Shown: in pieces, positions 1,935 to 35,400 of the stretch
How positions within the stretch are numbered: position 1 is the stretch's first letter
How the letters are laid out: the number at the start of each line of letters is the position of its first letter
Source: Harriotta raleighana
Taxonomy: Eukaryota
Assembly (NCBI GenBank): GCA_050575255.1
Contig: JBNZDD010013707.1
Location: 2,660,729 to 2,724,728 of the forward strand
Length of the DNA: 64,000 nucleotides
Reading direction: 5' to 3'
Made by a program: the position numbers and the translations under genes
Notes under the pieces: generated by a model
What the model saw: only the letters and a program-made list of their open reading frames with translations
Told to the model about the DNA's origin: nothing
Databases searched by the model: none

Positions 1935-2138
1935 CAAATCCAGGAGTTGGAAGCTACGCTGTACAATACATTGCAGCAGTGCCCTGGAAGCCGGGTGAGC
2001 GAATCTCTGAGCGACAAGCAGAAGGAAGAGCTGAAGCTGGCTGTGGAGAAGTGGAGGCGGCAAGTGCTGAGGCAGAGCCGGGAGTATGACGGTCAGATCT
2101 TACAGGAACGTCAGGAACTACTGCAACATGCAAATCAG
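1935..2138 (+). CDS. JAKMIP1: JAKMIP1 internal coding exon (QIQELEATLYNTLQQCPG...QERQELLQHANQ)
   Basis: ttctcag acceptor and cag|gtact donor; 204 nt, phase 0-0. Translation matches my recollection of the JAKMIP1 C-terminal region ([63 protein letters not shown]). Confidence 0.92.
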
Positions 2139-7439: not shown

Positions 7440-8390
7440 CGTCTTTCATGTCAGCAGGGCTGGACAGTCAGTGTTTCAGACCCGAGCCGGGGTCGTGGGC
7501 GGGGTGGGTGGAAGGAAAAAGGATTTGTGATGACTGATGGGACCATCAAAGAGGAGGGTCTTGAGGCGGGACTTGAAGGAGGACAGGCAGGGTGTGAGGT
7601 GGAGGGACTGCGGGATGTATTTCCAGAGGTTGGTTGCAGGGTGGCTGAAGGCTCACCCACTAATGGTGGGGTGGGTGGATTGGGGGACTTGGTGCAGGCT
7701 GGAGCCTCCTGAGCTGAATGGGGGGTGGGAGGTTGGTAGGGGGTTAGGAGGTGGTAGATGTAGAGTGGGGCGAAGCCATGGAGGGCTTTGAATGTGAGGA
7801 CCAGGATCATGAATTGGATCCTCTGAGTGATGGGGAGCCGATGGAGTCGGGCAAAAATGGGGAGATGGGGTCACAAAGCTTGGAGCGTTAGAGGATACCA
7901 GCCGCAGAGTTCTGGAATATCTGCAACCTATAGAGGGAGGAATTGAGAAGGCTGACAAGCAGGGATTGGCATAGCCAAGCTGGGATGTGAAGAAGTCGTG
8001 AATGAGGGCTTCAACGGGCTGGGGGCTGAGGTAATGGTGGAGTCGGGCAATATTGTGGAGATGAGGGAAGGTAGAGCGTGTCATTGCTTGGATGTGGGAG
8101 ACGAAAGACTGTTGAAGATCGAACAAGACACTTAGGTTCCTGACTGGCTTGGTGAGGTTGAGTGTGCAACCATGGAGGTTGATGCTGCTGGTGAAGCATG
8201 AAGGCGCAGGCACGAGCCAATTAGGAGGGCCTCGGTCTTGTTGACATTCAACTGTAGAAAGTTAGCTCTCATCCAGAACTTGATGTCTGACAGGCAGTCT
8301 GTCAGGACAGTATGTAGTCCTGGAGTTGAGGGGAGAGGGAGAAAGATAGAATTGGGTGTCAACTGCATAGATGTGGAATACCAATAGGAA
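7440..8390 (-). mobile_element. 5'-truncated L2 LINE (RT C-terminus and 3' end), frameshifted
   Basis: Minus-strand ORF pieces [46 protein letters not shown] and [11 protein letters not shown] are typical L2 ORF2 motifs; similar to 49436-52900. Confidence 0.9.
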
Positions 8391-11300: not shown

Positions 11301-12553
11301 AGGGTGCTACATTAACTGTTCCATTAAAAGTGATGTTAACAATCAGCATTTCCCATTAAATGTGGAAGAAGGGATGCATTAATTGCCTTTCTCTAGACCC
11401 AGTCATCTCTGGATTGATCAAATGAATCACCAGGCACTGAGAATGATGCACAGTATTTACCATTCTTGGAAGCGTGTGCTCCCCATGGTAACTGGGTGGC
11501 CTCGTCTACAGGTATCCAGGCTTGGTTTGTTCTCAAGGTGGCTTACGACTAACTCAGCATCTGATTCACCACATGGAGGGATGAAAGCAAGCTAAATGCC
11601 AGAGATTACAAAATATACAGTCAATTCACTTTACAATATATTCTATGAAGCGCTTTAAGACGTCTTGACAATGTGATAATGCCCTATATCAAATGCAAGT
11701 ATTATTATTATGATTATATTTATTATTTTGCACCCTTTCCCAACACATACCTTTTAAAACGACAGTATCATGTTTAGCTCTTACAAATGAGCATTTTTAT
11801 TGTTTTTAAAACCATACAATGTGCAGGGTGCTTGTCATGACTATTTACAGTATAAAGTATGTTGGGTTTGTACTGACGTTTTCTCAAGGTCAGGATATGT
11901 TTCCCTGAAATAAGAAAATGAAACAAAGAGCAGAACGAGCATCATTTTCAGGGGGCAATCTGTTTGTGTTTTAACACTCGAATAGTCACTAACTAAGCAG
12001 CTGCTGGGAACATTGGCCTTTGTCTTCAAAACGGATTATCAAGCAGACTTTTAATCTCCATTTGTAAGCACAGTGTGGAACGTAGCCCAATCTCACCAGT
12101 GTTGCCTTGCTATATCTGCGTTTCTCTGTGCCTCTTGTGTGCATGCTGTAGCTCTGTTTCCCCGGGATCAGGTACAATTCGTTAATGCTGAATCACTGGT
12201 AAATAATGAAATGTGTGCTTTTTAAAAATGTTTTATAAAAGAATAAAGAGTTACAATTCTTTGAGCCTGTTTAATATTAGTCAAGTGCATTTCTTTTAAC
12301 AAGTACCAAATGACTGTATTTTTGTTGTGCAAATACATCTACTGGTGTTCAGGCAGAAAGATCAACTGTGTTTGCTGGTTAGCACTTCCATTAAGAAAAT
12401 CACTGACTACTCAGCTATGCTGAGAAACGAATGGGAAATTTAGCAAAATCATAATTTTCTGCCAAATTGTGGATGCATAAAAATGAACAGACTATCATTT
12501 CAACGCCCACCTTTGCTGAGTGTCTAACAGTGTGTGGCCTCTTTGCTTTGCAG

Positions 12554-12619
12554 AGAATTCGAGAGCTAGAAGACAAGATAGAATTTCAGAAAAGACAAAT
12601 CAAAGAAATAGAAGAAAAG
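12554..12619 (+). CDS. JAKMIP1: JAKMIP1 penultimate coding exon (RIRELEDKIEFQKRQIKEIEEK)
   Basis: ctttgcag acceptor and aag|gtgagg donor; 66 nt, phase 0-0; matches JAKMIP1 RIRELEDKLEFQKRHLKELEEK. Confidence 0.93.
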
Positions 12620-12916
12620 GTGAGGTGTTTGACTTTGACAGTGTAAACTTTTGTTCGTCAGCTGTACAAAATATTTTGCATGCTTTCAAATGTTCGACTG
12701 GCATTATAATTGCATGAAGCAACTCATTGTATTGATTGTATTGCAGTAGAGTACTGTATTCCCTTTTAATATGTAATTCAGTAAAATCATTACAGTAGCA
12801 CACACATTCACTTTGTACTAACATTTTTATCCTCTTTAACTTATTTTTCTTTCTCTTCCCTTCTCTTGCTTATTTTGTTTGCGTCCTTTATGTCATGGTT
12901 TATTTTATACTTTTAG

Positions 12917-12967
12917 TTTTTGTTTTTGTTCCTGTTTTTTTCCTTAGCCTTTATCCTCTGGCCCTGA
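12917..12967 (+). CDS. JAKMIP1: JAKMIP1 terminal coding exon: hydrophobic tail anchor FLFLFLFFSLAFILWP*
   Basis: ttttag acceptor at 12916, phase 0; translation is the known JAKMIP-family C-terminal TM segment; TGA at 12965-12967. Confidence 0.93.
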   Translation, partial: FLFLFLFFSLAFILWP

Positions 12968-13789
12968 GAGACCATCTCCTGAGATACAGGTGAGTGCAAG
13001 CATCTTGTCTATTGAACAACTGTGCTTGGTGCTGAAGGAGAAATTACCAGGGGCTGTCCAGCTTATAATGTTTCACATGCAGTGAAAGTGAGCCATGTTT
13101 TGTGCATTAGCCTGAAGCCTGAATAAGCTCTGTCTGGCCGACTCAGCAAATCTGTTTACACCACTGTGCAACTCTTATTGCATTCAACTACAAAACCCTG
13201 CTTTCAAATAATCCGTACAATTCCTAACTAAGGGCAAAACTTGGTAAAATATTGCTGTTGAGTGCTGGGAGTGTACATTAAATTAGACTGGCACATTCCC
13301 CTATCCCAATTTAATCTGGTCAACTGAGGAAGCTAGTGTATTATTGTAGAGGTTTGTTATCCTATACTTAAGAGAGAAAGGAATTCCTCCCGGTTTCCTG
13401 GCCGACAACCCTCCAAAATAAAAAGTTGTCACTCACTTATTGGCTCTTTGTGGGACAGTGCTGTGCGCAAATTGGTTGCCGCTTTTGCCTACAATACCCA
13501 CAGTCACTGCACGTTACAGTACATCCTGTGAAGTGCTTTGAATGGTTCTCCTGACATTAGAGGCACTATACCCAAAACTGTATAAGGATTGTTATTTTAT
13601 TGTTATTATTACTTAGAGGTTTGTAATCTGTGAAGACATGGACTCCGTTTAAGACACTGCTTGAATGCTGTGGCTGGATGGTGGCAGGGTGGGTGGGATT
13701 GGTCAAATCAAGTTGCCCAAAGGGGCATTTCTTTCGGACCTATTTTGTGACCTTTTACTTGTGACTTTCTACTCTTTACCTCTCACCAG

Positions 13790-16700
13790 GCTGCAAGAGA
13801 GATAACTAAAGATAAAGCTGAGCTGACAGAGCAAATTTCAAAGTGTACAAAGCAAAATGATTACATTGAAGAGGAGGCATTGACAAAATTCATGGTTTCC
13901 GCTAAAGACAAAAATGAAAATGAGCAGAAAATATACATAATCACACATCTGAATTCAAGCTGGAGGATGCCAGTCACATTTTTCCAAAACAACTGCTCAC
14001 TAACGTGAAGGATGATTCCAATATAAAATTGAATTCAACCAATAAATTAGATCCAAATTCCAGTTTCTGTGTGATTCAGAAATGATGGAGGATAAACTCA
14101 CAAAAAAGCAAAGCAACCAGGAAAAAAAGCAAGTTACTGGTACAAAGAGTAGGGTACAGTTACAGAAACTGCATGCATCAGGGGAGCAACTGGGAGCACA
14201 GCTGAATCCCACACAACAAAAGAGAAAAAAAGATTTAGCGTCTGTTACAGAAGAAATCACTGCAAATTTAAATATAAAATCTTTACAAACACAACTGATA
14301 AAAGTAAATGCAGAAAACAAGCTGAAGAATGACAGAATATCAGAGCTTGAAGGCCATATTTTTCAATTCCAGAAATCCCAAACTTTAAGAGGAACTGAAT
14401 CCCAAGCAGATCAAGGTCTTGACGAATGCAAAATTTTGGCAGAAAAATTGAGGGGATATGAGGTTATAGTGGAAGAAAAAGCTGAAGAGTCGAGGAGCTT
14501 GAGGAAAAAACTAAGTGAAATGGAACGGTCATATCAGCAAGTACGATTTGAATATGATGCCCTCAAAGACAAACTGGCCTCTGTGAGGGAACTGGAGTCA
14601 CTTGATTCTCACAGTAGTGAGGAGGAGACTGAACGTAATGGTGGCACTGCCAAATCAGAGCTACTTCAAAGAGTCAAGAACCTAGAAGGACTTTTACGGA
14701 TTAAAGAAATGAGTGAAAAGGAACTAACAGAAGTGTCGAAAGAACTGGAAAGCCAGCTCTCGCAGAAGAGGGAGAAAGAGAGGCTGCTTAACCTGCGTTG
14801 TGCCAAATTTGACCAGTTAACCAAGCAGAAGGAAGACGTGGAAAGGAAACTGGAGGAGAGGTACAGTCAGGTGGAGCAGATGCAGAAAGAGAGGGAAGAA
14901 TTGGAGGAAGAGAACCAAGAACAAATGAAGATGCTCCTCAATGAGATCAAGGAGAGGGATGAGGCTTATGCCCAATTTGAGATGATTAATAAAGACTTGT
15001 CAAGGAAGACAAGAGAAATGGAAGAAACCAGAAACTGTCTTGAAGCTAAGATTGACCAATTAAAGATGGACTTGGAGGAGGGTATACACAGAGAAGTGAC
15101 AATAAAAAAGCAACTTTCAGATCTAGAGCAAACTGTCCGAGATTGGGAACACTTTGAGCAACAATTAAAGGAGCAGTTTAAAAGAGTGGAGGGTAAGCTA
15201 AATACTAAAATTAAGAGACTTCGCAAACGGCTTGAGGAGAAAGATGAAGCTTTAGAAAGAAGCACACAGGCGATTGAGGAACTCAAGAAGAGCGGCAAGG
15301 AGGCAGAACATCTGCTTCATGAAAGACAAAAGATTCCTCCAGAGATTCTCCAAGAGAAGATGAAACTTGAGGAAGAGCTGAGCAGGATGGCAGAGGCTGA
15401 ACTGGTCAAGGCAGGATCCATTGTAAAGATGACAAGCAGGTTTGAAATGGAGTTGAGTAAAAAAAACAGAGAATTGGAAAAGTTTACAGATGAGATTGAA
15501 AGCCTGAATGAAGAAATTGGTGAACTGCAAGAGCAACTTAGACAACATAAAGAGTCTGAAAGGAAGCTCCAGGAGAGGAACAAGATGATGGAAGAGTTAC
15601 TACAAGATATGCAGGAAGGCGAGTCTAAGATGTTACATGACAAGATAACCCGAATGGAAAAGCTGCTGATGATGAAAGAAGAGACCGAGGAGAAACTGCA
15701 GGTGAGAATCGGCAAGCAGGTGTCCTTGCTGAAAGAAATGGCGGAGACTCAGAAAAGGCTGGCACAGCGTAACGAAGAGCTAGGTCTCAAGCAGCGAAGA
15801 CTGAGCGAGGATCTGCACCAATGGAAAGTCAAGTGCTCTGACCTTGAGAAAGGTGAACGGGAAGTGAGAAATGAACTAATATATCAGAAGGACCGGGTAA
15901 ATGAGTTGGAAGCAGCCAACAGCAACCTCAAGGTGCAACTTAGAAAGAAATCTCACGAATTTGAGGAGCTTGACTTCTTGAAGAAGGAAGAAGAACATCT
16001 GATGGCAGAACTGAACAAGAAAATCGAAGAGCTGGTGTTTAAGGAGTCCGTCTGCCAGGCAGAAAATGCAAGCCTAGAAACTCATTTGAAGAAGAGAACC
16101 AAAGAGTTGGAGGCTTCTGAGGAAAGCAACAATCACCTGAGGAAAGAACTTGAGAAAACACTGGAGGGCAAAGAGCACGAAGTGAAAAAAGTCAAAACCG
16201 CAAGTGAACAAGAGAGGAGAGTGCTGGAAACTCACCTGTTTCAGAAATCTCTGTTGATCACATCTTTAGAAACAATGATTCAAGAGGAGCGGCAACTCTC
16301 TGTTTCATTAAAGCACGAGGTGCAAAACAAAGAGATAGCTGTTAAGAAGTGGCAAGAGAAGTGGTTAGAGTTGCAGACAAGGATTCAGGGTTTCAAACAG
16401 GTATATGCAAAGTGCAGCATCTTTATTTGTGTTAAACATAAACATCATCTAAATGCTATTAGTTATCGCAGAATTATAGCATCACAGAAGTTTGCAGCAC
16501 ATAAAGAGGCCATTCAGCCCATTGCGTCTGCACCAACTCTCAGAGCAGGGTGTTCATTCAATCTCACTGCCCTGCTGTTTTCCCATACCCTCTCAAGCTT
16601 CTATCCTCCGTATATCTGTCTGTTTTCCACTTGAAAACTTCAGCTCGGTTTTAAAAATTCAATGGCACTACTCAAATGGGGAAGAGATGTTTTCCTGCTA

Positions 16701-19700
16701 TCCAATAATCTCCCCGAGTATTGGGTCATTCACTTCATGCCTGTTTGCAGGACATTCCAATTTGCAAATAGGCTGCTGTATTTGCTTGCAAAATTCCACA
16801 GTGGATAGAAATTCCCTATGAAGTGCTTTGAGATATTTTTATGTTACAACCGCTATATTATTATATAAAAATGAAGGACTAATATTACATTAATCAGTAT
16901 ATAATATATATCCTTGCATTTGATATAGCGCCTAGCCATGTTGAGATGTCTCAAAGAGCTTCACAGAATATATGTACAGTGTATTTGACTGTATATTTTG
17001 TGGGTGAAACGCGGCAGCCAATTGCGCACAGCAGTATCCCACAAACAGTAGTCGATTGATGATCCACGGAAAGCGAATACTCACGGAAACTGATCCGCCA
17101 ATCGATTAACAACTGGGTACCCATTTTCTGCTAGTTAAACAGAGGCATGTGGAGTAAGGAAAATTGCTTACTGTTTATTATATTGATTAGTGTGAATATA
17201 TTAATGTTATGTTAACCTATGCAGTAAACTCAAAACATTGAAATTTAAATAGTGTTTGCTGCAATTGCTTTAAAGTATTGTCTTGGGTCAATGGGCTCCT
17301 GCATATTCTTTGTGTGGATATTTGAAGCAAACTGCTAGCTAATATGATATAATACCAAATTACATTTGTATAGTGCCTTTCTTATTGGGGGGACATCCCA
17401 AGTCAGGGATTTGGACCTGAGCTGAGGGTTGGGAACTGGGAGCTCAGAGGATAGGGAGGGTAGGAAGGTGGCCAAAGACCAATACTAGATTATTTCCCAC
17501 CTGTTCATCTGCATTGCCGTGCCACAGCCACCTTGTGAGGAAGATTGAAGCATCTTTGCTGAACTTGCCACATGTGGAACTTACAAGCGTGAGACCTGTT
17601 TTAGAATCCAGGCAGATCAGGGCGAAACCTTGGGCAAATTTCCTTACTCCACACGCCTAACAATAATCCGTCCAAAACAAAACTACTATAATAAAATTGG
17701 TAATTTCAGTCCACGACTGTTTGTGGAATTCTGCTGTACGCAATTGGCTGCTGCATTTTGCCCACAAATAAACAGTCAATTCACTTTGCAGTATATTCTG
17801 TGAAGTGCTTTGAGACGTTGATAAGATATGAAAAGCACTATATCAAATGCAAGGATTATTATTATTATTTCCTCCGTTAATGTAACATTAAAACTGTGAT
17901 ACTTCCCCCTAGCTTAGGTAAGACCTGACAGAATGAACCTAAGCTCTGAAACAAGCTTGAGGTTTTGATTACCCTCCCAGCAAAACCGTTTCAGAGAGAC
18001 ACGATGAATTAAAATGAGACATGAAATATTTAATCTGGAACGTTACGCAATATTGGGTTCTGGAAGGCTGATACTCACGATTAGGACCTCTCATGTGGTG
18101 CCATTGTTGGAATCTGTTAATATTGCATATCTGTTTGTTAAATAAAACATGCAGTACTTCTCTTCCAAATCATGAATAAGTCAGTGCATCTTTCCCACCA
18201 TGCTGAAGAGCCTGTCATTTGAGCAGCAGAAAGTAGTAATCTGCGTTGAGCCAACCTGAAAGGCGAGCCTTTATTTAGATGCTGAAGAGTTCCCAGCTGA
18301 AGCACGTTCCATAGTGTTCTTGATCCCCAAAGTTCCCTTTCCTATAAATGGAGTCCTCAGTTGACCAAGTGAAGGAGATCAGTTACCATGTTTCCTCACC
18401 TAGTAGTGAAGGGCTCGATGTCCTCAATGTGAATGTGACCATTGGTACCTCCTGGACTTCACAGGACCTGGAGGAGGCAAAGATTGAACGGACAAGGCAG
18501 GCATCTCAGAACGAGCTTGACACCCTGAGGCAGAGACTGGAGGAGTGCATGCAGTCTGAGAAAACACTGAAAAAAACTATCAGCGACTTCATAAAAGCAG
18601 AGGCTGCTTTACAAAGCAGGTAAAGAAACTGTGCACTTTCAGCTGTTTTGAAACGGATGCAAACAGTATAACATTACCTAAGTGTTGCAATTGAGATGTT
18701 ATTTGATTGTTCAATGTCGGGTGTCAACCAGGCTCAGTTGGTATTGAGCTTGACTTTAAGACAGAGGGTTGTGTGTTCAAGCCCAAATGTCGAGACTTTT
18801 GAACTCACAGTTTAGCTGACACTCCCAATACAGTGCTGGGGGTCTGATTCATTGCCTGAGGTGCTGTCCTTCAGATGAGTTGTTAAACCAAAATCCTGGT
18901 TGCCTGTTCAAGAGGATGTCAAAGATTGTATGGCATGATTCAAAAAGAGAAGGGAGTTATCATTTGTGACTCAATACACAACTGTTTGCGGAACACTGCT
19001 GTGCGCAATTGTCTGCCGTTTTTTACCGACAAAATATAGAGTCAATTCACTTTACAGTATATTCTGTGAAGTGCTTTGTCTAAAAGACACGGAAAGAGAT
19101 ATATCAAATGCAAGGATTATTGTTATTATAATCATTGACTTCATATCTATTTGTGGGTCATGCACAAATTGGCTGCATGGCTTGCTACAAAAAAGAGTCA
19201 CCTCACTTTACAGTGAATTCCTATGAAGCACTCTGAAACATGAAAGGCATTAAATTAAAAGTAAGGATTATTTTTTATCACTATGTGATTATACGGAGAC
19301 ATTGACTTGGGGAGCATTTGGCAATTTACAACGGATTACAAGAAATGTGCTTGGATGGCAAAGGAACAAATAACTTATTGTCATCTTAAGTCTCTTAGCA
19401 CTCTTTTTTTCCATTAGCTGACACCAGGTAATTGATCTAAATACCAGACAATGAACAACAGTTAGCATCCAGCAATTTTATGTGAGGTACCAGTTTGAGA
19501 ATGCCTGCTGATTGCTCACAAGTGCATACCTGCGGTAATACAGGCGTTCATGTAGATGTGCTGCACTAAGGAATTCATTGAGATGAAGGGAAGCAGTAAT
19601 AGAATATTTCTGAGTTATTTGAAGAGTTCACACAAGCATCACATGAACAACACCAGTGAGATTCATGTAGACTAAGGTGAAATGCAGGCGGTAAAACCTG

Positions 19701-20447: not shown

Positions 20448-23400
20448 AATTACACTTATAGAGCGCGTTTCACGTCAGGAGGACGTCCCAAGGCGCTGGG
20501 TCAGAACTAAGGTCAGAGGGCATTAATTCACACAGATTGTGGCTCTTATTTCAGTTAAGATAAAAACAGAACACAAAAGTGCTGGTCATTTTGTTGATGT
20601 TCAGGAATGTAAAGTTGATGTTTTAATGTCAAAATGTCAAATTTGTGAATTGCAAACTACAGGTCACAATTATCACAACAAATCCAGTTTGCAAATCACT
20701 CAAATTGGACCCAGTTAATATTGTCACAGTGTAAAAGTGTACAGCTTCGTTGAGAGCTGCTGAATCCCTCACTATTCCCCACATCTTGCTGGAATGCCCG
20801 TGGTAACTTTTATTGAACTGTTTAGAATTCAAGACTTGGAAAGGGCCGAGAAGCAGCTACTGGGTAAAATAGATGAGCTGAATTCCAAGTCCCTACAGCC
20901 AGAAACCAATGATCCCCACCTGACAGGAAAACTCCAAAGTCTGCAGGATTCAGAACGAACTCAGACAGCTGTGGTAAGAACTTCATTTTCATTCCATTTC
21001 CTTCTATGAAATACAACAGCAACAATTTTGATTTATATAGCATCCTCTACGCCACACAGCGTCTCAGAGCCCTTCACAGTAACGGATCTCAGTCACCAGA
21101 AATCACTGAAATAATCCTGGTCAGACATTTGACCAGATGACAATGAGGCTTTGCTATGTCTGTCCTCAATGGGTGTTCCATTCCGACAAAAGTTTTTTTA
21201 AAAAACAATTGATGCGTTTCCAATCTGTGTTTTAACCGTTATCCTATTGCATAAACACTTGCCACAGTTAGTTAATGCGATGATCATCACAACTTCCAAA
21301 CTAGAATGAATGTAATATAACCTACAGCATACCCCATGATATTTTTATTCAAGTTTGTAGCCTTCTCTCTTACATGCATTGATTACTTTTAGATACCTTG
21401 ATTAATTTCTTATCTATGGCTCTCCTGCTTGATGTCTGTAGTTCAATGCTCTGAGACGCTCTCCTGAGCGCCTCTTGCTATATAAGTACAGAACGACAAC
21501 AATTTAAATAGCTTTCACATCGATAGGACGTCCCAAGACATGGTATTACAAGCTTTTTGTAAAGTGCTCCGAAGTGAGAGCTTGTGAGTGTTTATGTGAC
21601 TGGGACCCTACCCTGTGCTACATAAATGCAACTTGCTGTTGTTGTTGCTTGTGTGAGAGAAGCGGTGATGGGTTTTTGTTGACTAATAAAATCTTGGATG
21701 GGTTAGTATCACTAATTAGCTGATCTAATCATATTGTGTATGTATGTATCATATTATTGTGCTGGTTAACTCATCTCTCAGACAAAAAAGCATCATCTTA
21801 CCCGAGTAAAGGGGGGAATGAGTGAATTATTTAAAATAAAGGATCTAAAATAACTGTCCAAGAACAAACTCGTCTTTGAAAGCTTGTTTTAAAAATTACA
21901 TGGAATTCATTTTATTTTCATATGACAAGATCATGTTCTTCACCTACGATTTTATTTACAGGAGCGACACCTAGTGGTGTGTTCAGTGCAACTACAATTT
22001 ACACTGAAGGTACCACCAGGGATGAAAAAAACTTTAGCTCAATTAAATGTCTCAGCATAGAACTGTGCACAATGTTCCATCATGGAAATAGGCCATCCAG
22101 TGCTGGTGTTTTTACTCCAAGTGAGGCTCCACCCATCTTAGTACTCTTTTCCACACCCCTCTATTCCCTTCTCTCTAGGTGATTCATATTAATTTCTCTT
22201 GTATGTCGTTTCTGCTTTTATAGATAAATGTGACACTGTCAGTGAGACTGTTTGTGTAGAGTAGAGGAGTTTAACACTGACAGTGACTCTGTATGTATAG
22301 TAAGGGACTGTGACACCAACTGTCAGACTGTGTGTGAAATAGAGGAGTGTGACACTGCCAACAAAAACAACAAATTACATTTGTATAGCGGCTTTCACAT
22401 TGGGAAGATGTCTCGTGCTGGACAATGCTGGATGTGCACCTGAGCTAATGGTTGGGATCAGGAGGGGTGGAGGGCAGGGAGGATGGTGGTAGAAGGGTAA
22501 ACAAAAGCACGGTCGAAGAGAAAGGTCTTGAGATTGGCTTTGAAGAAGCAAGGGAGAGGCTGAGGCAAAGNGATTGTTGGTGTGAAGTTCGAAAGTTAAA
22601 GGTCCATCTACCAATGATGGGGTGTGCCAGATGGAGGATGTGGNTCTCAGTTAAAGGTCCATCTACCAATGATGGGGTGTGCCAGATGGAGGATGTGGAG
22701 TAGGCCAGAGTCCATTGTGGAGGGAGTGGACAGGCGGGTATTAGATTAACAGGTCACAGAGTGACATAAGTTTTTATTGTGTACTGATCTTTATACTGTA
22801 TTTGGAATGTGGTCCCCTAAACCAAATTCCTGTTGAAACCATCCTGTTTCAGACCCCGTTATACACACCTTCACCATTTTTTTCCAGCTTGCAGAACGGG
22901 AGAGGGCAGATGCGGTTGTGAGGAGGAATCTGTGGCACTTGGAGAACCAGCTGAGGACGAAAGAGGAGGAGGTGAAGAAGCAGTGCAAGTACTTTGAACA
23001 TCACCAACAGAAGCAGCAGCAGCAGCTGGCAGAGCTGAGGGAACGCGAGCACTGGATGCAAAATCGGGTTTACGAGCTGGAGCGAGGAATGGTCGAGAGC
23101 AAAGCCACCAATGCAGTGCTAAGAGCTAAGCTGCAAAAGGCTACAGCAAAGGCCGCCATTGAACTCCCTGAGGAGGGAAGTTTTCCGCTGAATGAGTTGG
23201 ACGACGTCAAGAACCACATTGAGACGCTGGAGCAAGACCTGAAGAGGATCCTGGAGAGGGAAGAGGCCGGAGACCAGGAGAAGGAGAGGCTCCGCCACAG
23301 CCTCCAGCAGGCAGAGGACAACGAGGACTTCCTTGGCCACAAGCTGGAGGACTTGCGCTCGAGGATCCAGCAGCTCAAGCTGTCGGAGGGTAGTCTACAG

Positions 23401-26400
23401 GAACAGGTGGAGGAGCTGGAGGGCGAAAGCCGCAAGCTCAGAGCAGAGTTGGAAGCCAAACAGGAAAGTGAAGAGTACCTGAGGGAAGTGCTGGAAGAGA
23501 ATGAAAAACTGAAGCTTTTAGTGGAGGAAAGTTGCCAACCACCTGAAAGCGCACTGGTAAGCACACAAACATCAGTAAGCATCACTTATTGGGAAGGTTA
23601 AGTACAGTAAAAGCCCGTTTATCCGGCATCCTTGGGACCTGGCCAATGTCAGTTAAACGCCTTGCCGGATATTCGGTCGAATATCTGACTCCGAAAACCC
23701 AACACCCCAAAAATTAACTTATTTTAACACTTATTAATAATAGACTGAATAATAACAGATAATAACAGACCTTTGTTATTCACCTAAAAATTACTTTTGC
23801 TGGTAGATGACTGGTTTGAAGCCATGATGCTGGGGTACATGTGTACAGTCTATTGATAACTTCCGCAATGGCGGACTCGACATAAGGGAAAAAAACTGCA
23901 GCGCCACGTTAAGGCACTACTAGCAGCATTAAATACCGATACAAGGGGAATAAATGCTCCACCGCGATTATGCCGGATAAGATCCGGTTATTTGAATGGG
24001 GACCTTTTTTTTGAGGTGTTAAGTTACGGTTGATCGCGTCACGGATAAACAGGCTTTTACTGTATTAGAATACACTGCTTATCATGTCTTCCCTTGCTGA
24101 AGTGTTGTCATTTCAAAAGACTCCCGTCATCTTATTTTTTCCTCTTAACAATTTTTCAACTCCAATTTTCTCGACTTGTCTATCCCATTAGGTGGAATTT
24201 CATGTCTCTAATGTATATATACTCACACACATGTGTGTATATGTACATAATGCCCATTAATGGTCTATGGATAATGATCAACAATCATCCACTTCTTAGC
24301 CTTGGGCACTAAGGCCAATTTTAACACCTCAGTTGCTGCCCCAGCTGAGATCAACAACTGAGCACACACTGGGAGTTGAACCTACAATCTTGGGTCTGTA
24401 TGGACTAGTGCTGGCCCAGGTATTTATTTGCCTTTAACCAGTGGAGCTCCTGTGGCTCAGTGGTTAGAGCACTCGCCTTACATGCCTTACAAGCATGAGG
24501 CTTGTGTTCGAATCCAGGCAGATCAGGGCGAAACCTTGGGCAAGTTTCCTTACTCCACATGCCTAATAATAATCCCTCCCCAAAAAAACTACAATAATAA
24601 AATTGGTCATTTCAATCCATGACTGTTTGTGGGACACTGCTGTGCGCAATTGGCTGCCGCGTTTCGCCCACAAATATACAGTGAATTCACTTTACAGTAT
24701 ATTCTGTGAAGCGCTTTGGGACGTTGATAAGATGTGAAAAGCGCTATATCAAATGCAAGGATTATTATTATTATTATTACTCTTAACAGCAGTGCTTCAA
24801 TATGGACTGTGCTTCATGACTTTTAACTACACAGAGAAAACATGTGTTACCTGCTCTAATGCAATCCTGTTTATTGTCTGTTCTAGAATGATAGTGAACT
24901 CCACTTCAACACAGGTGAAATGCAGCTAGATCAAGACATTGCACAGAAGGTGAGAGTAAAAGGCATCTTCTGCACATGACTCGTGTTTACTCCCATTTCT
25001 GATCACTATGAGATTGTAATTTAGAGAATTCTGCAGTTTCTTGTTATGATTTTATTCACACTTGTCTTCCGATCACATATTTAGGGATAAATGGGTCATT
25101 CCCGAATTGGCAGGATGTAACTAGTGGAGTGCCACAAGGCTCAGTGCTTGGGCCTCAGCTATTTACAATTTACATCAATGATCTAGACGAGGACATTGAA
25201 TGTAATGTGTCTAAATTCATGGATGACACTAAACTAGGTAGGAGAGTGAGCTCTGAGGATGATGCAAAAAGATGACAACAAGATATAGATAGGCTAGGGG
25301 AGTGGGCAAGTAGGTGGCAGATGGAACTTAATGTGTGGATATGTGAAATTATTCACCTAGGTAGCAAAAATAAAAAAAAGATTATTTTCTAGAGGGGGAG
25401 AGGTTAGATAGTGTTAGTATTCAAAGGGATTTGGATGTCCTTGTCACCAGTCTCAAAAAGTTAGTTTGCAGGTGCAGCAAGCAACTAAGAAGGCGAACGG
25501 CATACTAGCGTTCATTTCAAAATGTTTAGAGTACAAGAGTAGGGAAGGCTTGCTGCAACTGTATAGGGCTTTGGTGAGACCTCACCTAGAATATTGTGTG
25601 CAGTTTTGGTCTCCTTATTTAAAAAAGGACATACTTGCCTTAGAGGCAAATGCAGCATAGATTCACTAGGTTAGTTCCTGGGATGAGGGGACTGACCTAT
25701 GCGGATAGGTTGAATAAACTAGGGCTGTATTCTCTTAGAGTACAGAAGAATTAGGGGGGATCTTATTGAAACATATAAGATTCTTAAAGGCCTGGATAAA
25801 GTAGACACTGAGGGACTGTTTCCCCTGGTAGAAGAATCTGTAACCAGGGGTCACAGTCTTAAAATTAAGGGTCAGCCTTTTAGAACAGAGTTGAGGAAAC
25901 ATTTCTTCACTCAGAGGGTAGTGAATTTATGGAATTCACTACCCCCCAGAAGGCTGTGGATGCTCAGTCCTTGAACATTTCCAAGGCTGAGACTGATAGA
26001 TTTTTTTTAAAATAGAGGGATTAGGGGATATGGGGATAGGGCAGATAATTAGAGTTAGGTCAGAAGATCAGCCATGATCATATTGAATGCTGGGGCAGGC
26101 TCGAGGGGCCGAATGGCCTATTCCTGCTCCTAATTCTTATGTTCTTATGTTCTTATATTTAAGATGTGATGGCTGGGGAAAAAAAACAGCTCAGGAATAA
26201 GGTTGGAAATAACAGCATTCCTGACTTTTCACTGTGTGATTTCTATTGGCACAGTAAATAAAATGCAGTTATTTGTATCAGTGCTCAAATACGTCAAATC
26301 ATATTGAATTCATGACTGTAATTTTTAAGCCAGAATGCTATTATGCACCTAGGGACTGAATATACTTTGTGCAATTGAAATAAATGGTTCTTGCCGCAAG

Positions 26401-29400
26401 ATGACCATAGTGTGCTTTTCAGTAAAATATGCAACAAACAGCCAGCAACTTCCTTGGGTTCTAAGCTAACTACATTTCATACTCTAGTTGATGAAGAATA
26501 AGAAAGGATGCGTGAGGTTGAATGAGGTTTTTAGTCTCGAGAATGCTGCTTCTTGAACCTATTAGACAGCTGTAGAAAGAGTGACATGAGTAAACATTTG
26601 TTTGTTGCTGGATAAGGCATTTTATGGACTTGTTCTCATTTCATTCAGATAGCCATTGCTCCCACAGCAATGCCGTAACTTATTCAGGTCAATTTTCTTC
26701 TCAGTACAAAAGTATCCTAAATCATGGCACAAATTTTGTGTTTTAAAAAAGACATCTTGAGTAATCAATTTAAGATTGGTTGATTTTGTTCCAAGTTTCT
26801 AAGGAACGATGGATAACCAAATAACTGTTAATGTTTGATTACACCTATTGCATTTTTCAGTTGATTCCATGCATTTTCTTGTGTTTAAGTTAATGAATGA
26901 TCAATTATTGAATTAATTATCAATCATTGAAAATTGCTCAAAAGAGGAAGTTACATGAAGTTGCACCATTGGGAAGTAGACTTGACCAAATTACCTTACC
27001 CAATACTGACCAACCTTACTCATGGCATAAGTGACTCGCCCACTGTGATCTATCAAGCAGCCAATTGCTAATGCTCGGGAACATTTTGTTCCATGTTCAC
27101 AAGCGGATTTCATATGACCCATGTGTCATTTGTGATAGTGATTATGATAATGATAGAGCCCACAGTGCAAGATCATGTTGTACTACCTCGTGACTCATAG
27201 AATACCAACAACAGTGGGGAAATCTGTACTTTATTTCCATCATTTAAAGCAAATAAAGATCTTCCAAGCAATATTTTTTTATTTGCTCATAGGCCCCAGT
27301 TGCCAGTTCTTTTTGTGTATAATGATTTTATTTTTCAGGTCATTGAAAACTTAGAGACTAAAAAGCAAAATCTACTTGAAGAGCTTGAAGCTTTGAGAAA
27401 TGAGCTTTGGAAGAAAGAAGGGTTACTGGTTAAATACGAGGCTCTCGGGATCAGCTCTGTGGATGCAGAGAGCATGCGGCAAGGGCTGGTGAAAGACTTT
27501 CACACTCTTTTGGAGAGCATGAAAGCCATAGACCAGAAATTAGAGGAGGCAGAGACGAGAAGGCTGCAAACCGAGATGGAGAAGGAGAGAGTGGAGGAGG
27601 ATTATGAACTAGTTGTTAGGGAACATGAAGAGCTGCAGCTTAGCTTCAATAAAACCTGTTACCAGTATGTAACAGCTGTGTGCCAGCTTCACGAGTTTAC
27701 TGATGGTGGCTCAGAGGTAGACATGCTGCTTGTGAAACTTAGTGAGGTGGTGCGACAGGTAACTTGAGTGAGTGCTAGTGAGCAATTTCATTCCATCCAA
27801 GCCTTTCTTTTATCACGTTTTTATATTTGTATAAATGATGAATTATTCTATTGATTCTAAATAGAATCATTTGTCAGTTCATTGTCACGTATGAAAACGA
27901 ATTAGCTTTTGATAGCCTTGTATCACTCATTGGGACGCTTCAAAGCACATCACAGCATTTTACTGTTCAGTATAGTATATTTTGCTGGAAAATACAGCAG
28001 CTAATGTTTGCATAACATGTTCCACAAACAGCTGTGACGTGAGAGACCAATTTTGTTTAGAGGTTATTAGCCAGGACACTATGAGAAACTCCCTTCTTTT
28101 TTTAAGAAGTCCTGTGGGATTTTTAATGTCCAGCTGAACAGGCAGATGGGCCCTTCGTTTAACACCTTAGGAAGGAGAGTTGCTGTAAGTCTTCTGGTAT
28201 CTGAGTCAAAGAAATGGCTGGATGGAATGAGGCCTTTGTGGGTCTGTGGTCTTGTGTGCATGTTAGGGGTGCTGTGTAGAATTTTTTGAAATATTATTTG
28301 GAATGAAATATGTACCATTCAATATCATGGTTGTCTGGGTTTTCTGAAATATCCCTTGATACTGGAATTTATTACATTTCAACAAAATGTAAGAAAAGCT
28401 CATTAAAATCTAAGGGACTATAAGACAGCAAGGAAGTCATACTCATTGTAGAACGATTTGGATCAATGAACCATTAGCTTCTCAGTTACAAACAGGATAA
28501 CAAGCCCCAGGATGCAAAGAGCATCAAAACACTCTTGTGCCGATTCCCTTTGTTCTTGTTCCCTGTCCATTTTGTAAAGGGCGGATTGATAATTGGAGAG
28601 AAAAGACATAATTTAAAATAGTCTATGCCGGTGAGGAGATAATTAGAATAATTAGATGCATCTATTAAATTTGTATAAAATAAATTATCTTCCATTACAG
28701 TGACTACAGCTTATTGCTGCTGAGTGTTTATCCTCTTATGCTGGAAATGTAAATGTGTATGTTTTTGCTGATGTTTTCTAAATACTCAGCAAAATGTTGT
28801 TCTATGTTTGTGTGTGTGTGTGTTTGTGTGTGCATGCAGACATCTTAAATCTGCATTTCCCCATACAAGCGGAGGAGGAAATTAGATCTAGTGTAAACAT
28901 AATAAAACAAGTACAGATATTTGCAAACTAGCTAGCTGAGAGGTAGCGGCTGAGAGTTGGCAGATTTCTGGGCAAAGCAATTTTTTGGGGAATGTTTGAC
29001 CAGCGAAATTGAAATGGGCGGCTGGACTGCAGTGAGTACCACATGTTGATGCCAGCATCGCCCTATAAATGTTTTACAATATATTAATCTCTCTTCTACC
29101 CTGCAAGAAGAGCGCTATATAAATGAAAGTTGCTGTTGTTAAAGCTATTCATTGTCTAAGGGGGGAGGGGTGTATCACACTGGAGTTTTGCCTCGAGCGA
29201 CAGATTGTTGTGAGCGGCTCCTGTTGCACAGTTGGCTAAACACACTGTGTAAATGCAGTAGTTCCTCATTCTAGCTCTGGTTGTGAGTAGCATCCTCTCT
29301 GCCCGTTTGATGCTTTCTAATCATATTTTTCTCCTTCTCCTTCAGGAATCTTCAAAGCTTAAGCAGCTGAGCAGCCTCTGTAGTGCAATCTTTCACCATG

Positions 29401-32400
29401 TGGTGAGCTCACAGTCTGGCCATTGCACAACAGTAAGTCAGTGCATAATCAATGCAAGTTTTTATTCTGTATCCAGACACAGGAGGCACTATTACAGTCT
29501 CACAAGAAATGAATCCCGACATGCAAAGAGTATAGGAATGGATGGATACAGAAAGCATCACATCGCAGGTGTAAAATAATTAATACATGTATGAACGAAC
29601 TATCAGTTTGCTTTCCCTCTTCTAAACTTGTGCATAGGTGGCATTAGCACTTGATTTGTTAACACCAGTGTGAAATGCTGGCACCAAAACAAAAAGTAGG
29701 TACTTTGACAAACAGAAACCACTAAATCGTTTCCCCTTTTCTAGTTTGTTACATTTAGAATCCATGGTATCTATCAGGGAAAAAGCATATTTTTCAGCTG
29801 TACTTAATTTGTCTAGTTTATTGGTTTAAACGGAGACATTTATAATTCATTGCCTAAGAGGATACAAAATTTAACAGACTCTTCAATGATGCTGATTGTG
29901 CCCTCCTTGTACCATTGCAAATCTCACTTTCCTTTATATCCCCCCTGGTTACTGTACATCCTAACAAAAAAAACCTTTGGAGTCTGTAAGTCTAATCAAA
30001 CATTCATCACTCAATCGAAAGGAAATTTCACTTTCAAATCATAGGAATGAACACAAATCAGATTGGAGTAGAATCCTGTGTTATGTGCTTCTGATTTCCT
30101 TATTAAGGAATCCCATTAGCAATTGTCATATAATCAAACTCAGTATCCTCCCATTAAATACATTAATTTAGTTGCAAACTGATATAAAATTTACTGTCCT
30201 GGCGTTGCTCACTACTGTGTCAATTTGAATACTAACTTTGCAGATATTAACTTTGCAGATATGTTCTCCATATGTTGTCATGGAAATTAATGCTTTAAGG
30301 ACGACTCTTATGCAATCATTGGGCAGATATATTCAAAAGAGGCACAAGTGAAACATACTGGTCCACAAACTAGGGTCAATTTGCCTCATACAAGTCAAGT
30401 TATTTTAGAATCCCTTCAGCAATGTTGAAATGTCTTGAAATTAACTGAAGTTCTTGTAATTTCAATTAGTATTTTCAACTTGCTTTTGTTTCCTCTCACA
30501 GGAGGAGCAGAGCTCTCCCAGCAGATACAGAGACTTGAAGAACTCTTTGAGCCACTTACGATCTCAACTCCAGGTAAAATAATACATTGGCTTTGTGGAT
30601 GCACAACACTTCCAGCTTGTCACAACACAAATGGATTTTGTATCCTGTCGTCCGCCTATTTAGCATATACCGGTAGGACTGGTACAAAATACTGTTCAAA
30701 TTAACTGTATAAGAATTGTATTGTGGTGTCCTGTAGTTCAGTGGTTAGAGCACTTGCCTTACAAGCAAGAGACCTGGGTTCAATTGCAGGCAGGGCAAAA
30801 TTTGGGGCAAGTTTCCTTGCTCCACACATCTAATAATTCCTCCAAAATAAAACAGCACAAAAAATTGGTCATTTCAATTGACCACTGTTTGTGGGACACT
30901 TGTGTGCACAATCATCTGTGTTTTGCCCACAAATACAGTCAATTCACTTTACAGTATATTCTGTGAAGCGCTTTGAGATGTCTAGAAGACGTGAAAAGCT
31001 CTATATCAAATGTAAGGATTATTGTTATAAGAATCATAAAATAATATAATTCAATACAGAGCTGCCTCATTTGTAAGGTGGCTGGTTTATGGACTCCCAA
31101 CATTCACAGGGTGACTTGATAGTTAAGAGTTTTGCTAGAGTATGGGTCCGCTTTCATCATGAGTGCCCCATGACTGGTGGCTACCAGAAATGTGATTGCA
31201 CCCTTCACAAGGAGCAGTGCCTCAGGGCACTTTGCACCTATTCTCTATTCAGTGAAGAACAGATGGATATCTGATTGGGGGTAGAATGGAGCAATGACTC
31301 CTTTTTGTTCTTCTATTTCTATTTAGTTATGTACACAATAATAAAAATTGGTCATTTTAATCCACGACTGTTTGTGGGACACTGCTGTTCGCAATTGACT
31401 GCCGCGTTTCGCTCACAAATATACAGTCAATTCATTTTACAGTATATTCTGTGAAGCGCTTTGAGACATTGATAAGATGTGAAAAGCGCTATATCAAATG
31501 CAAGAATTATTCTTCTTATTATTTGTAGTCAATAATTTCAATGCTAGAGCATCAACTTCAGCTCTGAAACAAAATATTAAACTCGGGTGTCTCGATTCTG
31601 TGCAGAACGGGGATATTTTGTTTCGAGAAGAGTTGCTGAGGGAGAAATGGGCATCTCTGTTGGATCCATCTCGTAACAAGGCAATTCAGACCCCCTCCAT
31701 TGGGCAGTGTGTTCAAGAGGCCATGATCATTGCAAGTATGGTGTTACACACAGATTTACATGCTTTGATTGATCTTTCTACATGTTTAAATTACACTGAC
31801 TATCCAATAAGAGTGTGCTTTGCTCTTATGATGGTGCAAGTCAAATAAACCACATATTTGTGTGCTACTTAACAGAGTTGGCTTCTGAATGTATCTCTGA
31901 TTACCCAAAATTCTCGGAGGCGATCAAGGAAGGCCGTCTTACACCACTGATGGAATCACATTCCTCTCCATTGGCAGAGATGATGCAGGCTCTTAGATCC
32001 AGTGATGTGGAGCAGGTGAGAAAAGTCTCTTGTATTGGTCATACTCAATGTAGTTCATTGACTCGGGTTTGAACACCATTCCATACTAAATTGGCTGTTG
32101 TCAGATGGTTTAAGATAGGAGTTGAACAAGTAGCCTAGATTGGGGAAGGGAAAGATAAGAGTTTTGTTTTCTGATTACTAAAACAGCAACAACAGCTTGA
32201 TTTATATCACGTCCTTCACAGAGGATAGTGCTTTGGATGTGCTGACATCATTGTTCCATGATGTTTGATGTGCTGTGTTCCTGATCATTCTCCCATGGGT
32301 ATGTGTGGTGTGAAGAAAGGACAGGATTATGCTCATGTGTGATTTTCTCCACATCCCCCCCCACCACCAGTTGCTTAACTTGCTGACCATCAGTGTTCAG

Positions 32401-35400
32401 GCTCATACATAAAGAATGAGTACCCACAATGATGTCCTTCATTTACTTTTAAGAAGTTGTACATAACTGGGACTTTGAGCGATTGTTCACACATCACAGT
32501 ACCTGTCTAGCTAGGACCATCCTATTCATTCGGGTTTTGAAGTTATATCTATAATAATAATCTTTTAAATTTCATATGGTGCCTTTCACACTGGAGGACA
32601 TTGCAAAGCACTTCATTGGATTTGCTGTGAAGTGTAGGACCTTTATAGGTGAACATTTGTAGGTGAATGTTTGCACACAGTCTGTTTCAAGCTCCTCTCT
32701 CAGTGCGGTAAAGCTCACGGGACTAACAGATGAACCGTAGTAACTCCCAAACACAAACCTGTATTTGATAATATTCATTTATTAATTATTGTAATTTAAA
32801 TGCCAGTTTGTTTCACTCATTAATTAGATAAGTACGGGCCTCTGTACTGAGTTACACATTTTGCACATCTCGCAAAATGTACCTCGGGATTGAAGGCTGA
32901 TATCTCTAATGTGCTTTATAACTTTTATCAGACTTGAGATTAACTGATTTACAATTATAGTACTCAAAATTTAGAATTGACCACCACTCACTGAGCAATA
33001 CATGTTTGTCCTTACTTTATCCACAGGTCAGAGTTGTCCTTAAGAGACCTGAGACTCAAAAAGAGCTGGCCAGATTGTTGGACTGTGAAGGAGAACAATT
33101 GGCAAGAGAAGAGGATATCTCTTCACCCCTGGAGGAAAAACTAGGTGCCAGTGAGAGAGCGCAGGAGTACACAAAATACGGAGATGACATAATTAACACC
33201 AAAGAAACAAAACACCATGTTGTAGTTACAATGGATCCTGATACCAGTCAACCACAGGCTGCCCTTGCAGAGTTTGCCAATCAGAAAGTCCCTGGCACAA
33301 AGTCAAGCAGCACTTCTGTACATACACGTAGCATTTGTGACCACAGTGAGCCTGATGGTCACAATTTGTCAAGCTCACAGTTCAACATGCATAGAGAATC
33401 CTCCAGCACAGAGGCCATGACATACACAGGTACCATCGCAACACTTGAAGCTGAGATACAAAAGCTGCAGACAGAGAAAGCAGAGCTGGACCAACATTTG
33501 CAAGGCAAACATAGCCTGCTCCTCAAAACAACTGCAGAAAGAAGTGAACTGCAGAAAAAACTGTGCGCGACAGAAAGTCAAGTCAACGATTTGTCCCAGA
33601 AACTTGATGTGGTGATGCAAGACAAGATGAAGGAAGAAGAAACGATGAAGAACAACTTGAGGAAGGAGAATGAAGTTCTGGAGAAGAGAAACAAAGAGCT
33701 ATGCAATAGAATAGCGAAGCAGGAAACAGAGTGGAAGGAAATGGAGGCAGAGTTTCAGGAAGAGAAGGAGAACAGTTTACAGAACGTTTTGAAGCTGGCC
33801 GAGGAGAAGCAGAAACTGGAAGAACAACTTACCTCTGTCCGGACAGCGAATGCACAGCAGTTATTGGAATGCCATCAGACTGCTCAAGGAATGGATGCTC
33901 AAAATGAGGAACTGAAGAAAAGAATAGCAGAGCTGGAAAACAAAGATAAAATACTTATCGATGCAATAACAGGGCTGAAGGAAGAGATAGAAAAAGGAAA
34001 GCAAGAAAATGACCTACTGCTCAACAAGATGAACAGGCTGGAGAATGAGAAGGCAGAGGCAGGTCACCGAAATGCACAGATATTAAAAAGAGAGAATGAG
34101 GAGCTTTCAGAGAAGGTCAATATATTAGAAAGAAAAGCAGAACAATATGATGCTCAAATTATTGCCCTGCAGCATAAATTGAATTGTTTGGAGCATGAAA
34201 ACAGCAAATTGATGAGATTGAAAGAAAATCAAATTGAAGGGATGGATGTGGAAATAACTGATGGAAAGGGGAAATTGGTGGAGGCTGCTGAGACTCTCGA
34301 GCAACCAAATGAGCAATCACTGCAAGATACTCCTTTGGTAACAAAAGACGGGGAGGCAATATTGAAAACTGAACAAGTATTTTCATTGAGCAAAGGTCTG
34401 GTAGGGAAGAAGTATGCGTTTAATGATGCATTGGCTGAGTCACCTGTAGAGAAAGATATTAGAGGAACTGCTGACGATTCAAAGCTGGAGTCTAATAAGG
34501 TCTCGAGACAGGAAGAATGTGTGGCCAGGCTAACCAGAGAGGTGGTGGGACTATCCTCAGCAGAAGGCTTGGTTATGATTGATGCTGCTCCAGAAGTTGT
34601 TAATTACTGTGACCAAACTGAACTGCTGGAATGTGCTACTCAGGTAAGCAGCAACAATATTTATTTTCAATCTAGGGCTAGAAATTTGTCATTCATTTGT
34701 GGTCTGGCTTTTTAAAAGGTGAATTATTTTCAATTATACCCAGCAATATATTTGTTATGGATGGAATCATAAAGTGAAGGCTCCATGAAAGCACTCTATT
34801 TCATCAAAAGCATCTAATTGTGCTTCACAAGTATTTGGTGCTTGCTTTTAAAAAAAACTTCAGTAATAAACCCTTGTTAATCTAGACCCAAATATCCAGA
34901 ATTTGGAATTAACCAGACTGCATCCCCTAAAAATCTGTGATTCAAAACTCCTCTCCATGTTTTTAAACTTCCACGAGCTTATGTGTTGTCAACAAGTTGA
35001 CACTGATGAGGTTTTTAGCTGACGGCATCCACAGAGCTGTATCACATCAGTTCTGACAAAGGGTCGTGGACCTGAAAAGTTGACTCACTTTTTCTTTCTC
35101 CATAGATGCTGCCTGACCTGCTGAATGTTCCCGGCAATTTCTGTTTTTGTTTCAGATTTCCAGCATCTGCAGTATTTAGCGTTTTTGTATCACATCAGTG
35201 GTGGTTATAGAATTATTGTTATTTTTTGTTTTTCTTTTTGTCTATTATTTATTTAAACTTCATTTTTGTTCATTTTAAATGTTAGGGGGGATTTNTCACA
35301 TCAGTGATGGTTATAGAATTATTGTTATTTTTTGTTTTTCTTTTTGTCTATTTTATTTATTTAAACTTCATTTTTGTTCATTTTAAATGTTAGGGGGGAT

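Follow-up and report, generated by a model that had tools for sequence, protein, structure and literature searches.

The closest described relatives of the upstream gene treated here are JAKMIP1 (Marlin-1), JAKMIP2 (NECC1) and JAKMIP3 (NECC2) (PF16034), which have the same exons and the same C-terminal hydrophobic anchor. They are called vertebrate-specific in the accessible part of PMC3765260, and no invertebrate members are reported in the accessible part of PMC4906994. For rat Necc2/JAKMIP3, membrane and soluble forms generated by splicing at the anchor exon have been published; the splicing is intra-exonic, and a 915-residue form without the hydrophobic region was shown by reverse-transcription PCR (PMC3765260, as far as accessible). 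The downstream gene, C4orf50, is described as poorly characterized. Its SH3 and Ig_RIMBP2/FN3 domain types are those of the RIM-BPs (RIMBP2, TSPOAP1, RIMBP3), which carry three SH3 and two to three FN3 domains according to the available text of PMC7565545, a survey in which C4orf50 is named nowhere (0 occurrences in that text). Both genes are found in the stretch analysed in this study (the window), 64,000 nucleotides of the chimaera Harriotta raleighana (contig C13707:2660729-2724728), where they lie in the same order and on the same strand and are separated by a gap of approximately 1.1 kb. An earlier note on this DNA had proposed that skipping of the membrane-anchor exon joins JAKMIP1 in frame to C4orf50, giving a protein of more than 3,000 residues.

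JAKMIP1 and C4orf50 are read in separate frames in the chimaera and are probably (roughly 0.75) the halves of one ancestral giant gene. In gene fission with tandem halves, new starts and a new stop exon divide a multidomain frame, the halves of which stay adjacent. Homologues covering both halves in a single frame were found, as gene models, in several outgroups. The locus would differ from gene fission in general in that the cut is likely due to a membrane-anchor exon subject to alternative splicing and that, of the three paralogous loci, a single one retained the second half. The idea that C4orf50 is part of the JAKMIP1 gene is thus supported for the ancestor, as represented by the single-frame giants of cnidarians, a hemichordate, a nemertean and molluscs, but falls in this genome for the route proposed earlier. 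A fusion or fission of JAKMIP and C4orf50 was not found described in the literature covered, most subscription journals lying outside this coverage, and the accessible parts of PMC9255983, PMC11245434, PMC7393167, PMC7032534 and PMC10138286 do not deal with the gene structure.

Reading frames between JAKMIP1 and C4orf50

The proposed joint leads from the donor at 12619 to an acceptor at 13790 (12619^13790). Its elements are present: the exon 12554-12619 ends in phase 0, the exon 12917-12989 bears the anchor (16 hydrophobic codons and a TGA), the acceptor (...ctctcaccag) precedes 13790, and 72 open phase-0 codons follow it. This number of open codons is more than chance; it was reached by 0.3% of 20,000 base shuffles of 13790-14081 and at 3.1% of intron positions. 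The base composition of 13790-13930 (45% A) is the same as that of the coding start at 14082-14400. The phase-0 frame from 13790 meets stops at 14006 (TGA), 14024, 14030, 14048 and 14072. The C4orf50 frame opens at ATG 14082, which lies 292 nucleotides (3n+1) past the acceptor in another frame and is preceded in its own frame by eight stops between 13803 and 14043. Single-base deletions were tried throughout 13790-14090, none of which opened a path into the frame of ATG 14082. Because the frame stops after 72 codons and ATG 14082 lies in another one, a fusion via 13790 is not encoded here, and 12619^13790 is refuted for this genome. With five in-frame stops and the frame offset, the fusion protein of more than 3,000 residues is lost as well, and none of 216 fetched C4orf50-related proteins is fused.

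The frame break is very likely real rather than an assembly error, because neither of two compared contigs has a located gap across it. A contig of a near-identical sample covers 13768-13978 with one substitution and no gaps. The contig of a relative covers 12304-16508 with 266 substitutions and 33 gap letters, of which 32 could be located, all outside 13790-16400. Raw DNA reads (X16, X17) reached a depth of approximately 0-2 over 13900-14100, too thin for indel calls.

Giant proteins of invertebrates and the origin of the SH3-FN3-SH3 end

With a JAKMIP1 exon as query against 1.84 billion representatives, the best 150 of 198 matches included one protein of 3,046 residues. It stems from the coral Stylophora and contains JAKMIP_CC3, four SH3 domains and one Ig_RIMBP2; the combination of JAKMIP with SH3/FN3 domains is visible in public protein records. 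A profile search yielded 46 proteins, 20 of them 3,000-5,200 residues long (corals, Nematostella, Saccoglossus, Lineus and molluscs). The profile of the C4orf50 C-terminus matched all 20 long invertebrate proteins, the vertebrate JAKMIP profile 14 of them (11 species) at E<1e-5. With Pfam, JAKMIP_CC3 was found in four further species, which gives 15 species from four phyla (cnidarians, hemichordate, nemertean, molluscs). In each of these 15 species the giant is predicted as one protein, 3,000-4,900 residues in length, in which a JAKMIP head is followed by a long coiled coil and an SH3-FN3-SH3 end of the C4orf50 type. In contrast to the view of JAKMIPs as a vertebrate-only family, the invertebrate relatives are here the heads of these giants. 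No JAKMIP head was detected by profile or Pfam in the giants of Acropora cervicornis and Biomphalaria. Some of the giants may be among the divergent RIM-BP sequences in Table S2 of PMC7565545, which that study excluded from its tree. The Saccoglossus cluster comprises seven records (4,160-4,210 residues), that of Lineus ten (3,655-4,250 residues). Saccoglossus P0373 aligns with residues 16-805 of the 837 residues of JAKMIP1 (E 5e-69) and continues for 3,340 more residues; the alignment ends within approximately 16 residues of the membrane anchor. JAKMIP-like models without a long tail were also observed, in a cockroach (P0365, 701 residues) and a crinoid (P0311, 667 residues, partial), which could be incomplete models or independent splits. 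In an ESM Atlas search with the crinoid protein, the matches were chordate JAKMIP clusters, followed at lower rank by unrelated families of coiled coils, with no fused cluster among them.

The SH3 and FN3 modules claimed for the downstream gene are real domains, SH3 and Ig_RIMBP2 being detected by profile, and the SH3 core residues are conserved. C4orf50 matches the giants in the order coiled coil, SH3, single FN3, SH3. The coiled coil ahead of the first SH3 is common to the giants and C4orf50 and found no match in three RIM-BPs tested. Both also share the motif Arg-x-Asp-Gly-Phe in the SH3 that follows the FN3, where the two RIM-BPs compared have Asp. Amino acid identity in the three domains is 0.39/0.31/0.47 between C4orf50 and giant versus 0.33/0.25/0.37 between C4orf50 and RIM-BP. 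In a tree of the three domains (20 proteins, 243 columns), C4orf50 groups with the bilaterian giants apart from two RIM-BPs (Shimodaira-Hasegawa-like approximate likelihood ratio test 94.7, bootstrap 88). C4orf50 and most bilaterian giants have two SH3 domains and one FN3 behind a stalk of 2,000-4,000 residues, unlike RIM-BPs, while the cnidarian giants have four SH3 domains. Since two SH3 and one FN3 were found in C4orf50 of Callorhinchus and other fishes, instead of the three SH3 and two to three FN3 of the RIM-BP family, C4orf50 resembles a RIM-BP and is not classed as one. RIMBP3 (P0402, Lemmus) weakly matches the JAKMIP profile with E 0.001 and a mixed profile with E 6e-20, and a whale JAKMIP1 record (P0226) weakly matches RIMB1_N (E 3e-5, under the cut-off). 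Because of these weak cross-matches, the N-termini of RIM-BPs may share ancestry with JAKMIP.

The 13790 exon and competing explanations

The exon at 13790 is likely the last exon of JAKMIP1, predicted to serve as 3' untranslated region for the membrane-anchored form and as a 72-residue tail for the soluble form. A downstream exon is required by the membrane exon, because the latter has its own donor 22 nucleotides past its stop. The layout of the anchor exon, with a donor just after the stop, is identical in the JAKMIP2-like and JAKMIP3-like paralogues of the genome, and the anchor of the JAKMIP2-like paralogue consists of the identical 16 residues. In catshark, the JAKMIP3 model P0413 uses an acceptor homologous to 12948 and ends in a 128-residue non-membrane (soluble) tail. 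The corresponding tail exon of the chimaera JAKMIP3-like gene shares its first six bases and phase 0 with the 13790 exon. Aligned from the acceptor without gaps, the two exons score 23 over 17 codons (0/20,000 shuffles equal), with p 0.00015 over 25 and 0.0023 over 39 codons. This chimaera JAKMIP3 tail exon (C13726, approximately 6.2 kb into the reversed stretch from 9010000, L036) carries a frameshift after approximately 39 codons relative to the catshark model. The 72-residue tail found no match among the fetched proteins; the clusters of vertebrate JAKMIP records had one to three members and were without cartilaginous-fish JAKMIP1. AATAAA 14041 is the first canonical signal within the 13790 exon. 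With the transcript ending at AATAAA 14041, the membrane form would be spared nonsense-mediated decay under the 50-nt rule. High-copy short repeats with a read depth hundreds to thousands of times above background were seen at approximately 13441-13595 and 16472-16600, one of them in the intron that precedes the 13790 acceptor.

With the membrane exon included, the 13790 exon would be untranslated and JAKMIP1 tail-anchored; with the membrane exon skipped or entered at 12948, a soluble JAKMIP1 with a 72- or 86-residue tail would result. Both forms would likely end at AATAAA 14041. C4orf50 would likely be translated separately, either from ATG 14082/14085 (long form, approximately 2,550 residues) or from ATG 18348 (short form, kept in amniotes). 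Historically, a stop-bearing membrane-anchor exon would have arisen in the ancestral frame at about residue 820. Its presence in all three paralogues makes an origin before the vertebrate genome doublings likely, and this exon is likely the cut point of the ancestral gene. The JAKMIP2 and JAKMIP3 loci would have lost the downstream half, which the JAKMIP1 locus would have retained as C4orf50, and the frame of the linker would have decayed. The ancestor may be pictured as a very long tether from a microtubule/motor-binding head to proline-motif-binding SH3 domains, and C4orf50 as this tether minus its head.

A number of points weigh against the fission reading. The giants are known from gene models, which can merge neighbouring genes by mistake, as sturgeon P0062 illustrates; such an error is unlikely in the giants because the same join recurs in four phyla. 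Neither the middle coiled coils nor the N-terminal stalk of C4orf50 showed homology to the giants above reversed controls. The three-domain tree is unrooted, contains two RIM-BPs (both vertebrate) and was calculated without Saccoglossus, in which the first SH3 was undetected; RIM-BP sampling amounts to two or three vertebrate proteins in all trees. In the FN3-only tree (30 domains, 103 columns), one RIM-BP repeat stands beside C4orf50 and a clade of giants and C4orf50 is rejected (approximately unbiased test, p-AU 0.023); long branches meet at this point. For the 13790 exon, the window lengths of the comparison with JAKMIP3 were picked post hoc, after the match had been seen, and the likeness fades past approximately 40 codons (middle frame 13924-14082 against the JAKMIP3 tail not significant, p 0.21; whole-exon DNA p 0.08). 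The likeness to the catshark tail is weak (anchored p 0.025, 0.024 and 0.10; unanchored 1015/2000), and a terminal exon of JAKMIP2 was sought and not found. All splice forms of JAKMIP1 and C4orf50 and the poly(A) site are predictions; of at least 18 sequencing runs found for 12400-16450, none is recorded as RNA, which says nothing about expression. With regard to the frame break, the position of one 1-letter gap in the relative's contig and the stop codons of this contig are not visible. A 1-nucleotide difference near 14060, which puts the 13790-type frame locally in register, is suggested by the first residues of the Callorhinchus protein model, whose start lies 10 residues ahead of the shared Met.

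Two explanations deny either the common origin or the break. JAKMIP1 and C4orf50 could be unrelated neighbours, C4orf50 having arisen by duplication of a vertebrate RIM-BP and come to lie next to JAKMIP1, and the giants by an independent fusion. The FN3-only tree and the unalignable middle stalks would suit this, but the single-FN3 architecture, the coiled coil before the first SH3 unmatched by RIM-BPs, the motif in the last SH3, the three-domain tree and the arrangement in the same order and strand across approximately 1.1 kb make it decidedly improbable. The in-frame joint 12619^13790 as first proposed could be rescued if the break were an assembly error, with two A's missing near 13926 and 14081. 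The middle frame stays open over 13924-14082 (53 codons), its two switch points are short A-runs in which two added bases would bridge all three frames, and the composition of the region is exon-like. Open runs of 55 codons occur at approximately 6% of intron positions, however, the same-species contig is gapless over the first A-run, the relative's contig has no listed gap in 13790-16400, and the models of 13 shark and ray species share the start Met, so that this version is almost certainly wrong.

The remaining two explanations concern fusion or shared transcription in living vertebrates. Tested with the JAKMIP profile, none of the 216 fetched C4orf50-related proteins matched, while three of three invertebrate giants used as controls did; for one of the searches behind the 216 proteins, the test drew on 120 of 242 matches, with placental mammals and birds essentially outside, which also weakens it as support for separate genes. 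The profile search that yielded the giants is no test of vertebrate fusions, because it returned no vertebrate JAKMIP. C4orf50-like proteins named JAKMIP1 isoforms were found in sea turtles (Dermochelys, Chelonia, Lepidochelys) and silversides (Leuresthes, Odontesthes). They contain no JAKMIP sequence and start at an internal Met, which suggests, from how annotation pipelines probably assign names, shared exons with separate frames; shared transcription of JAKMIP1 and C4orf50 in some vertebrates is hinted at by these names. Human databases may also show a C4orf50 transcript that spans JAKMIP1, which is not counted as evidence here. A splice not considered in the earlier note leads from the 12619 donor to the 18465 acceptor. 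Both are in phase 0, and the predicted product would be in frame with approximately 2,600 residues. That vertebrates rebuild the ancestral giant in this manner, by splicing a JAKMIP1 exon to 18465 or its homologue and thereby uniting a microtubule/kinesin-binding head with the SH3-FN3-SH3 end, appears unlikely. Quite unlikely, too, is that the chimaera locus is still one gene spliced from 12619 (or from 12989 after the internal acceptor) to 18465, skipping the membrane and 2.6-kb exons. In addition to the matching phases, the models Mobula P0057 and Caretta P0100 and P0215 join 18465-type acceptors to various upstream exons, the isoform names recur in three sea turtles and two silversides, and JAKMIP1 is the top co-expressed gene of C4orf50 in human breast tumours (r=0.642, with exocytosis genes enriched; PMC13657826, accessible part). 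Co-expression is common among neighbouring genes, however, the JAKMIP1-named proteins lack the JAKMIP part, and no fusion was found among the 216 fetched proteins although 2,600 residues are within the lengths searched. A single transcription unit could also encode two proteins, with read-through using the 13790 exon internally and C4orf50 made by reinitiation at 14082, which is compatible with a history of fission. No intron is needed between 13790 and 14082, the stop of the tail lies just 73 nucleotides ahead of the ATG, and in five species the annotation treats the loci as one. There is also no CpG island; the absence of CpG-rich sequence between the genes reported earlier was confirmed (observed/expected 0.24 at 13001-14000), and low CpG does not exclude a promoter. 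On the other side stand six upstream ATGs in 13790-14081, the AATAAA at 14041, a stop before many junctions, which makes a decay substrate by the 50-nt rule, and the rarity of reinitiation after an 800-codon frame. We consider this arrangement unlikely.

Gene anatomy and significance

The features of the window are listed in Table 1. The upstream gene belongs to the JAKMIP family by its JAKMIP_CC3 domain and C-terminal hydrophobic anchor exon; four matches to JAKMIP_CC3 (PF16034), three of them above the cut-off, lie 27-36 kb upstream of the window on the same contig. Also approximately 27 kb upstream (L016:2854-3105), a JAKMIP1 exon reads past its donor to a stop, and this run-on matches the end of the 635-residue Conger isoform P0218. 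A short JAKMIP1 form of the Marlin-1 type thus seems to be conserved in the chimaera, judged from this match.

Table 1. Positions of JAKMIP1 and C4orf50 features in the window
Feature	Position	Strand	Remarks
JAKMIP1 coding exon (IQELEATLYN...HANQ)	1935..2138	+	204 nt, phase 0 to phase 0; exon scan; corresponds to a stretch of Conger JAKMIP1 P0410
JAKMIP1 last common coding exon	12554..12619	+	66 nt, RIRELEDK...EEK, phase-0 donor gtgagg; homologous exons in both paralogues
Membrane-anchor cassette exon	12917..12989	+	16 hydrophobic codons (12917-12964), TGA 12965-12967, own donor gtgagt after 12989, 22 nt past stop
Internal acceptor in membrane exon (predicted)	12948..12989	+	42 nt in open frame, phase 0 at both ends; 14 additional soluble residues if used
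Acceptor and 72-codon tail; likely JAKMIP1 terminal exon, likely relic of ancestral linker	13790..14008	+	TGA 14006-14008; anchored match to JAKMIP3 tail exon
AATAAA, predicted JAKMIP1 poly(A) signal	14041..14046	+	T/GT-rich stretch near 14063-14075; putative function
C4orf50 long-form first coding exon	14082..16400	+	773 codons, coiled coil, ATG-ATG start, phase-0 donor
Second conserved C4orf50 start running into exon 2	18348..18619	+	ATG 18348, stop codon directly before; internal phase-0 acceptor 18465
C4orf50 middle coiled-coil exons	20824..35741	+	at ~20824, 22876, 24887, 29343, 30502, 31600, 31869, 33024, 35583; edges approximate; tblastn with Callorhinchus P0020
C4orf50 DUF4527 coiled coil and first SH3 exons	37549..47572	+	edges approximate
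C4orf50 single RIMBP-type FN3 (Ig_RIMBP2) exons	53620..60804	+	Ig_RIMBP2 at 53632, E 5e-8

The downstream gene is the C4orf50 orthologue, as indicated by DUF4527 (PF15030; 40177-40365, E 7e-14) and by its position between JAKMIP1 and CRMP1, the next gene (L022). The first SH3 (45910-46242, E 3e-4) is just below the curated cut-off. The exons extend approximately 11.5 kb beyond the window end, where the last SH3 and the stop are located (loci L019 and L020). In the genome, at least one DUF4527 locus and at least three Ig_RIMBP2 loci were counted, with no Ig_RIMBP2 match on the JAKMIP2 and JAKMIP3 contigs. The open reading frame at 14082 is 86% identical to the Callorhinchus milii model and 55-65% to sharks and rays. 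The homologous Met is the start in 49/57 cartilaginous-fish records (13 species); the other eight comprise the two Callorhinchus models starting 10 residues earlier, four starting further downstream or fragments, and two with other first exons. The start at 18348 (approximately 45 residues compared) shows 76% identity to sawshark P0061, 51-53% to turtles and 42-43% to marsupials. Positions 18348-18464 form an alternative first coding exon of C4orf50 that has not been reported before and whose conservation extends from the chimaera to marsupials, and amniotes appear to use the 18348-type start only. Compared to C4orf50 elsewhere, cartilaginous fishes retain the extra first exon of 773 codons and the last SH3; an SH3 scan of the turtle and silverside C4orf50 proteins gave no match.

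In a sturgeon (Acipenser), the GenBank model P0062 joins C4orf50 to CRMP1, probably an annotation error. Copies of retrotransposons of the long interspersed nuclear element (LINE) type are located in introns at 50016-52169 (minus strand), 7451-8431, 49529-50263, 54219-55163, 58867-59638 and 61205-62781, the longest with a reverse-transcriptase domain (RVT_1, E 7e-24). At approximately 44726-45217 lies a short tandem repeat containing a run of N, and an assembly gap of approximately 1 kb lies within a LINE copy at approximately 61500-62550.

JAKMIP1 is studied in autism-linked 15q duplication (bioRxiv 10.1101/2025.10.21.683757, accessible part), and its true set of 3' ends therefore matters for knock-out design. 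If JAKMIP1 were in fact spliced to 18465, the membrane exon would act as the switch that selects either a tail-anchored coiled-coil protein or a long tether from motor to release site in neurons and secretory cells. If the fission of an ancestral giant gene is true, JAKMIP would be as old as the cnidarian-bilaterian ancestor, where it would have formed the head of a giant RIM-BP-like scaffold not described so far; C4orf50 would acquire both an origin and a role open to testing, and the break point would be marked by the membrane-anchor exon.

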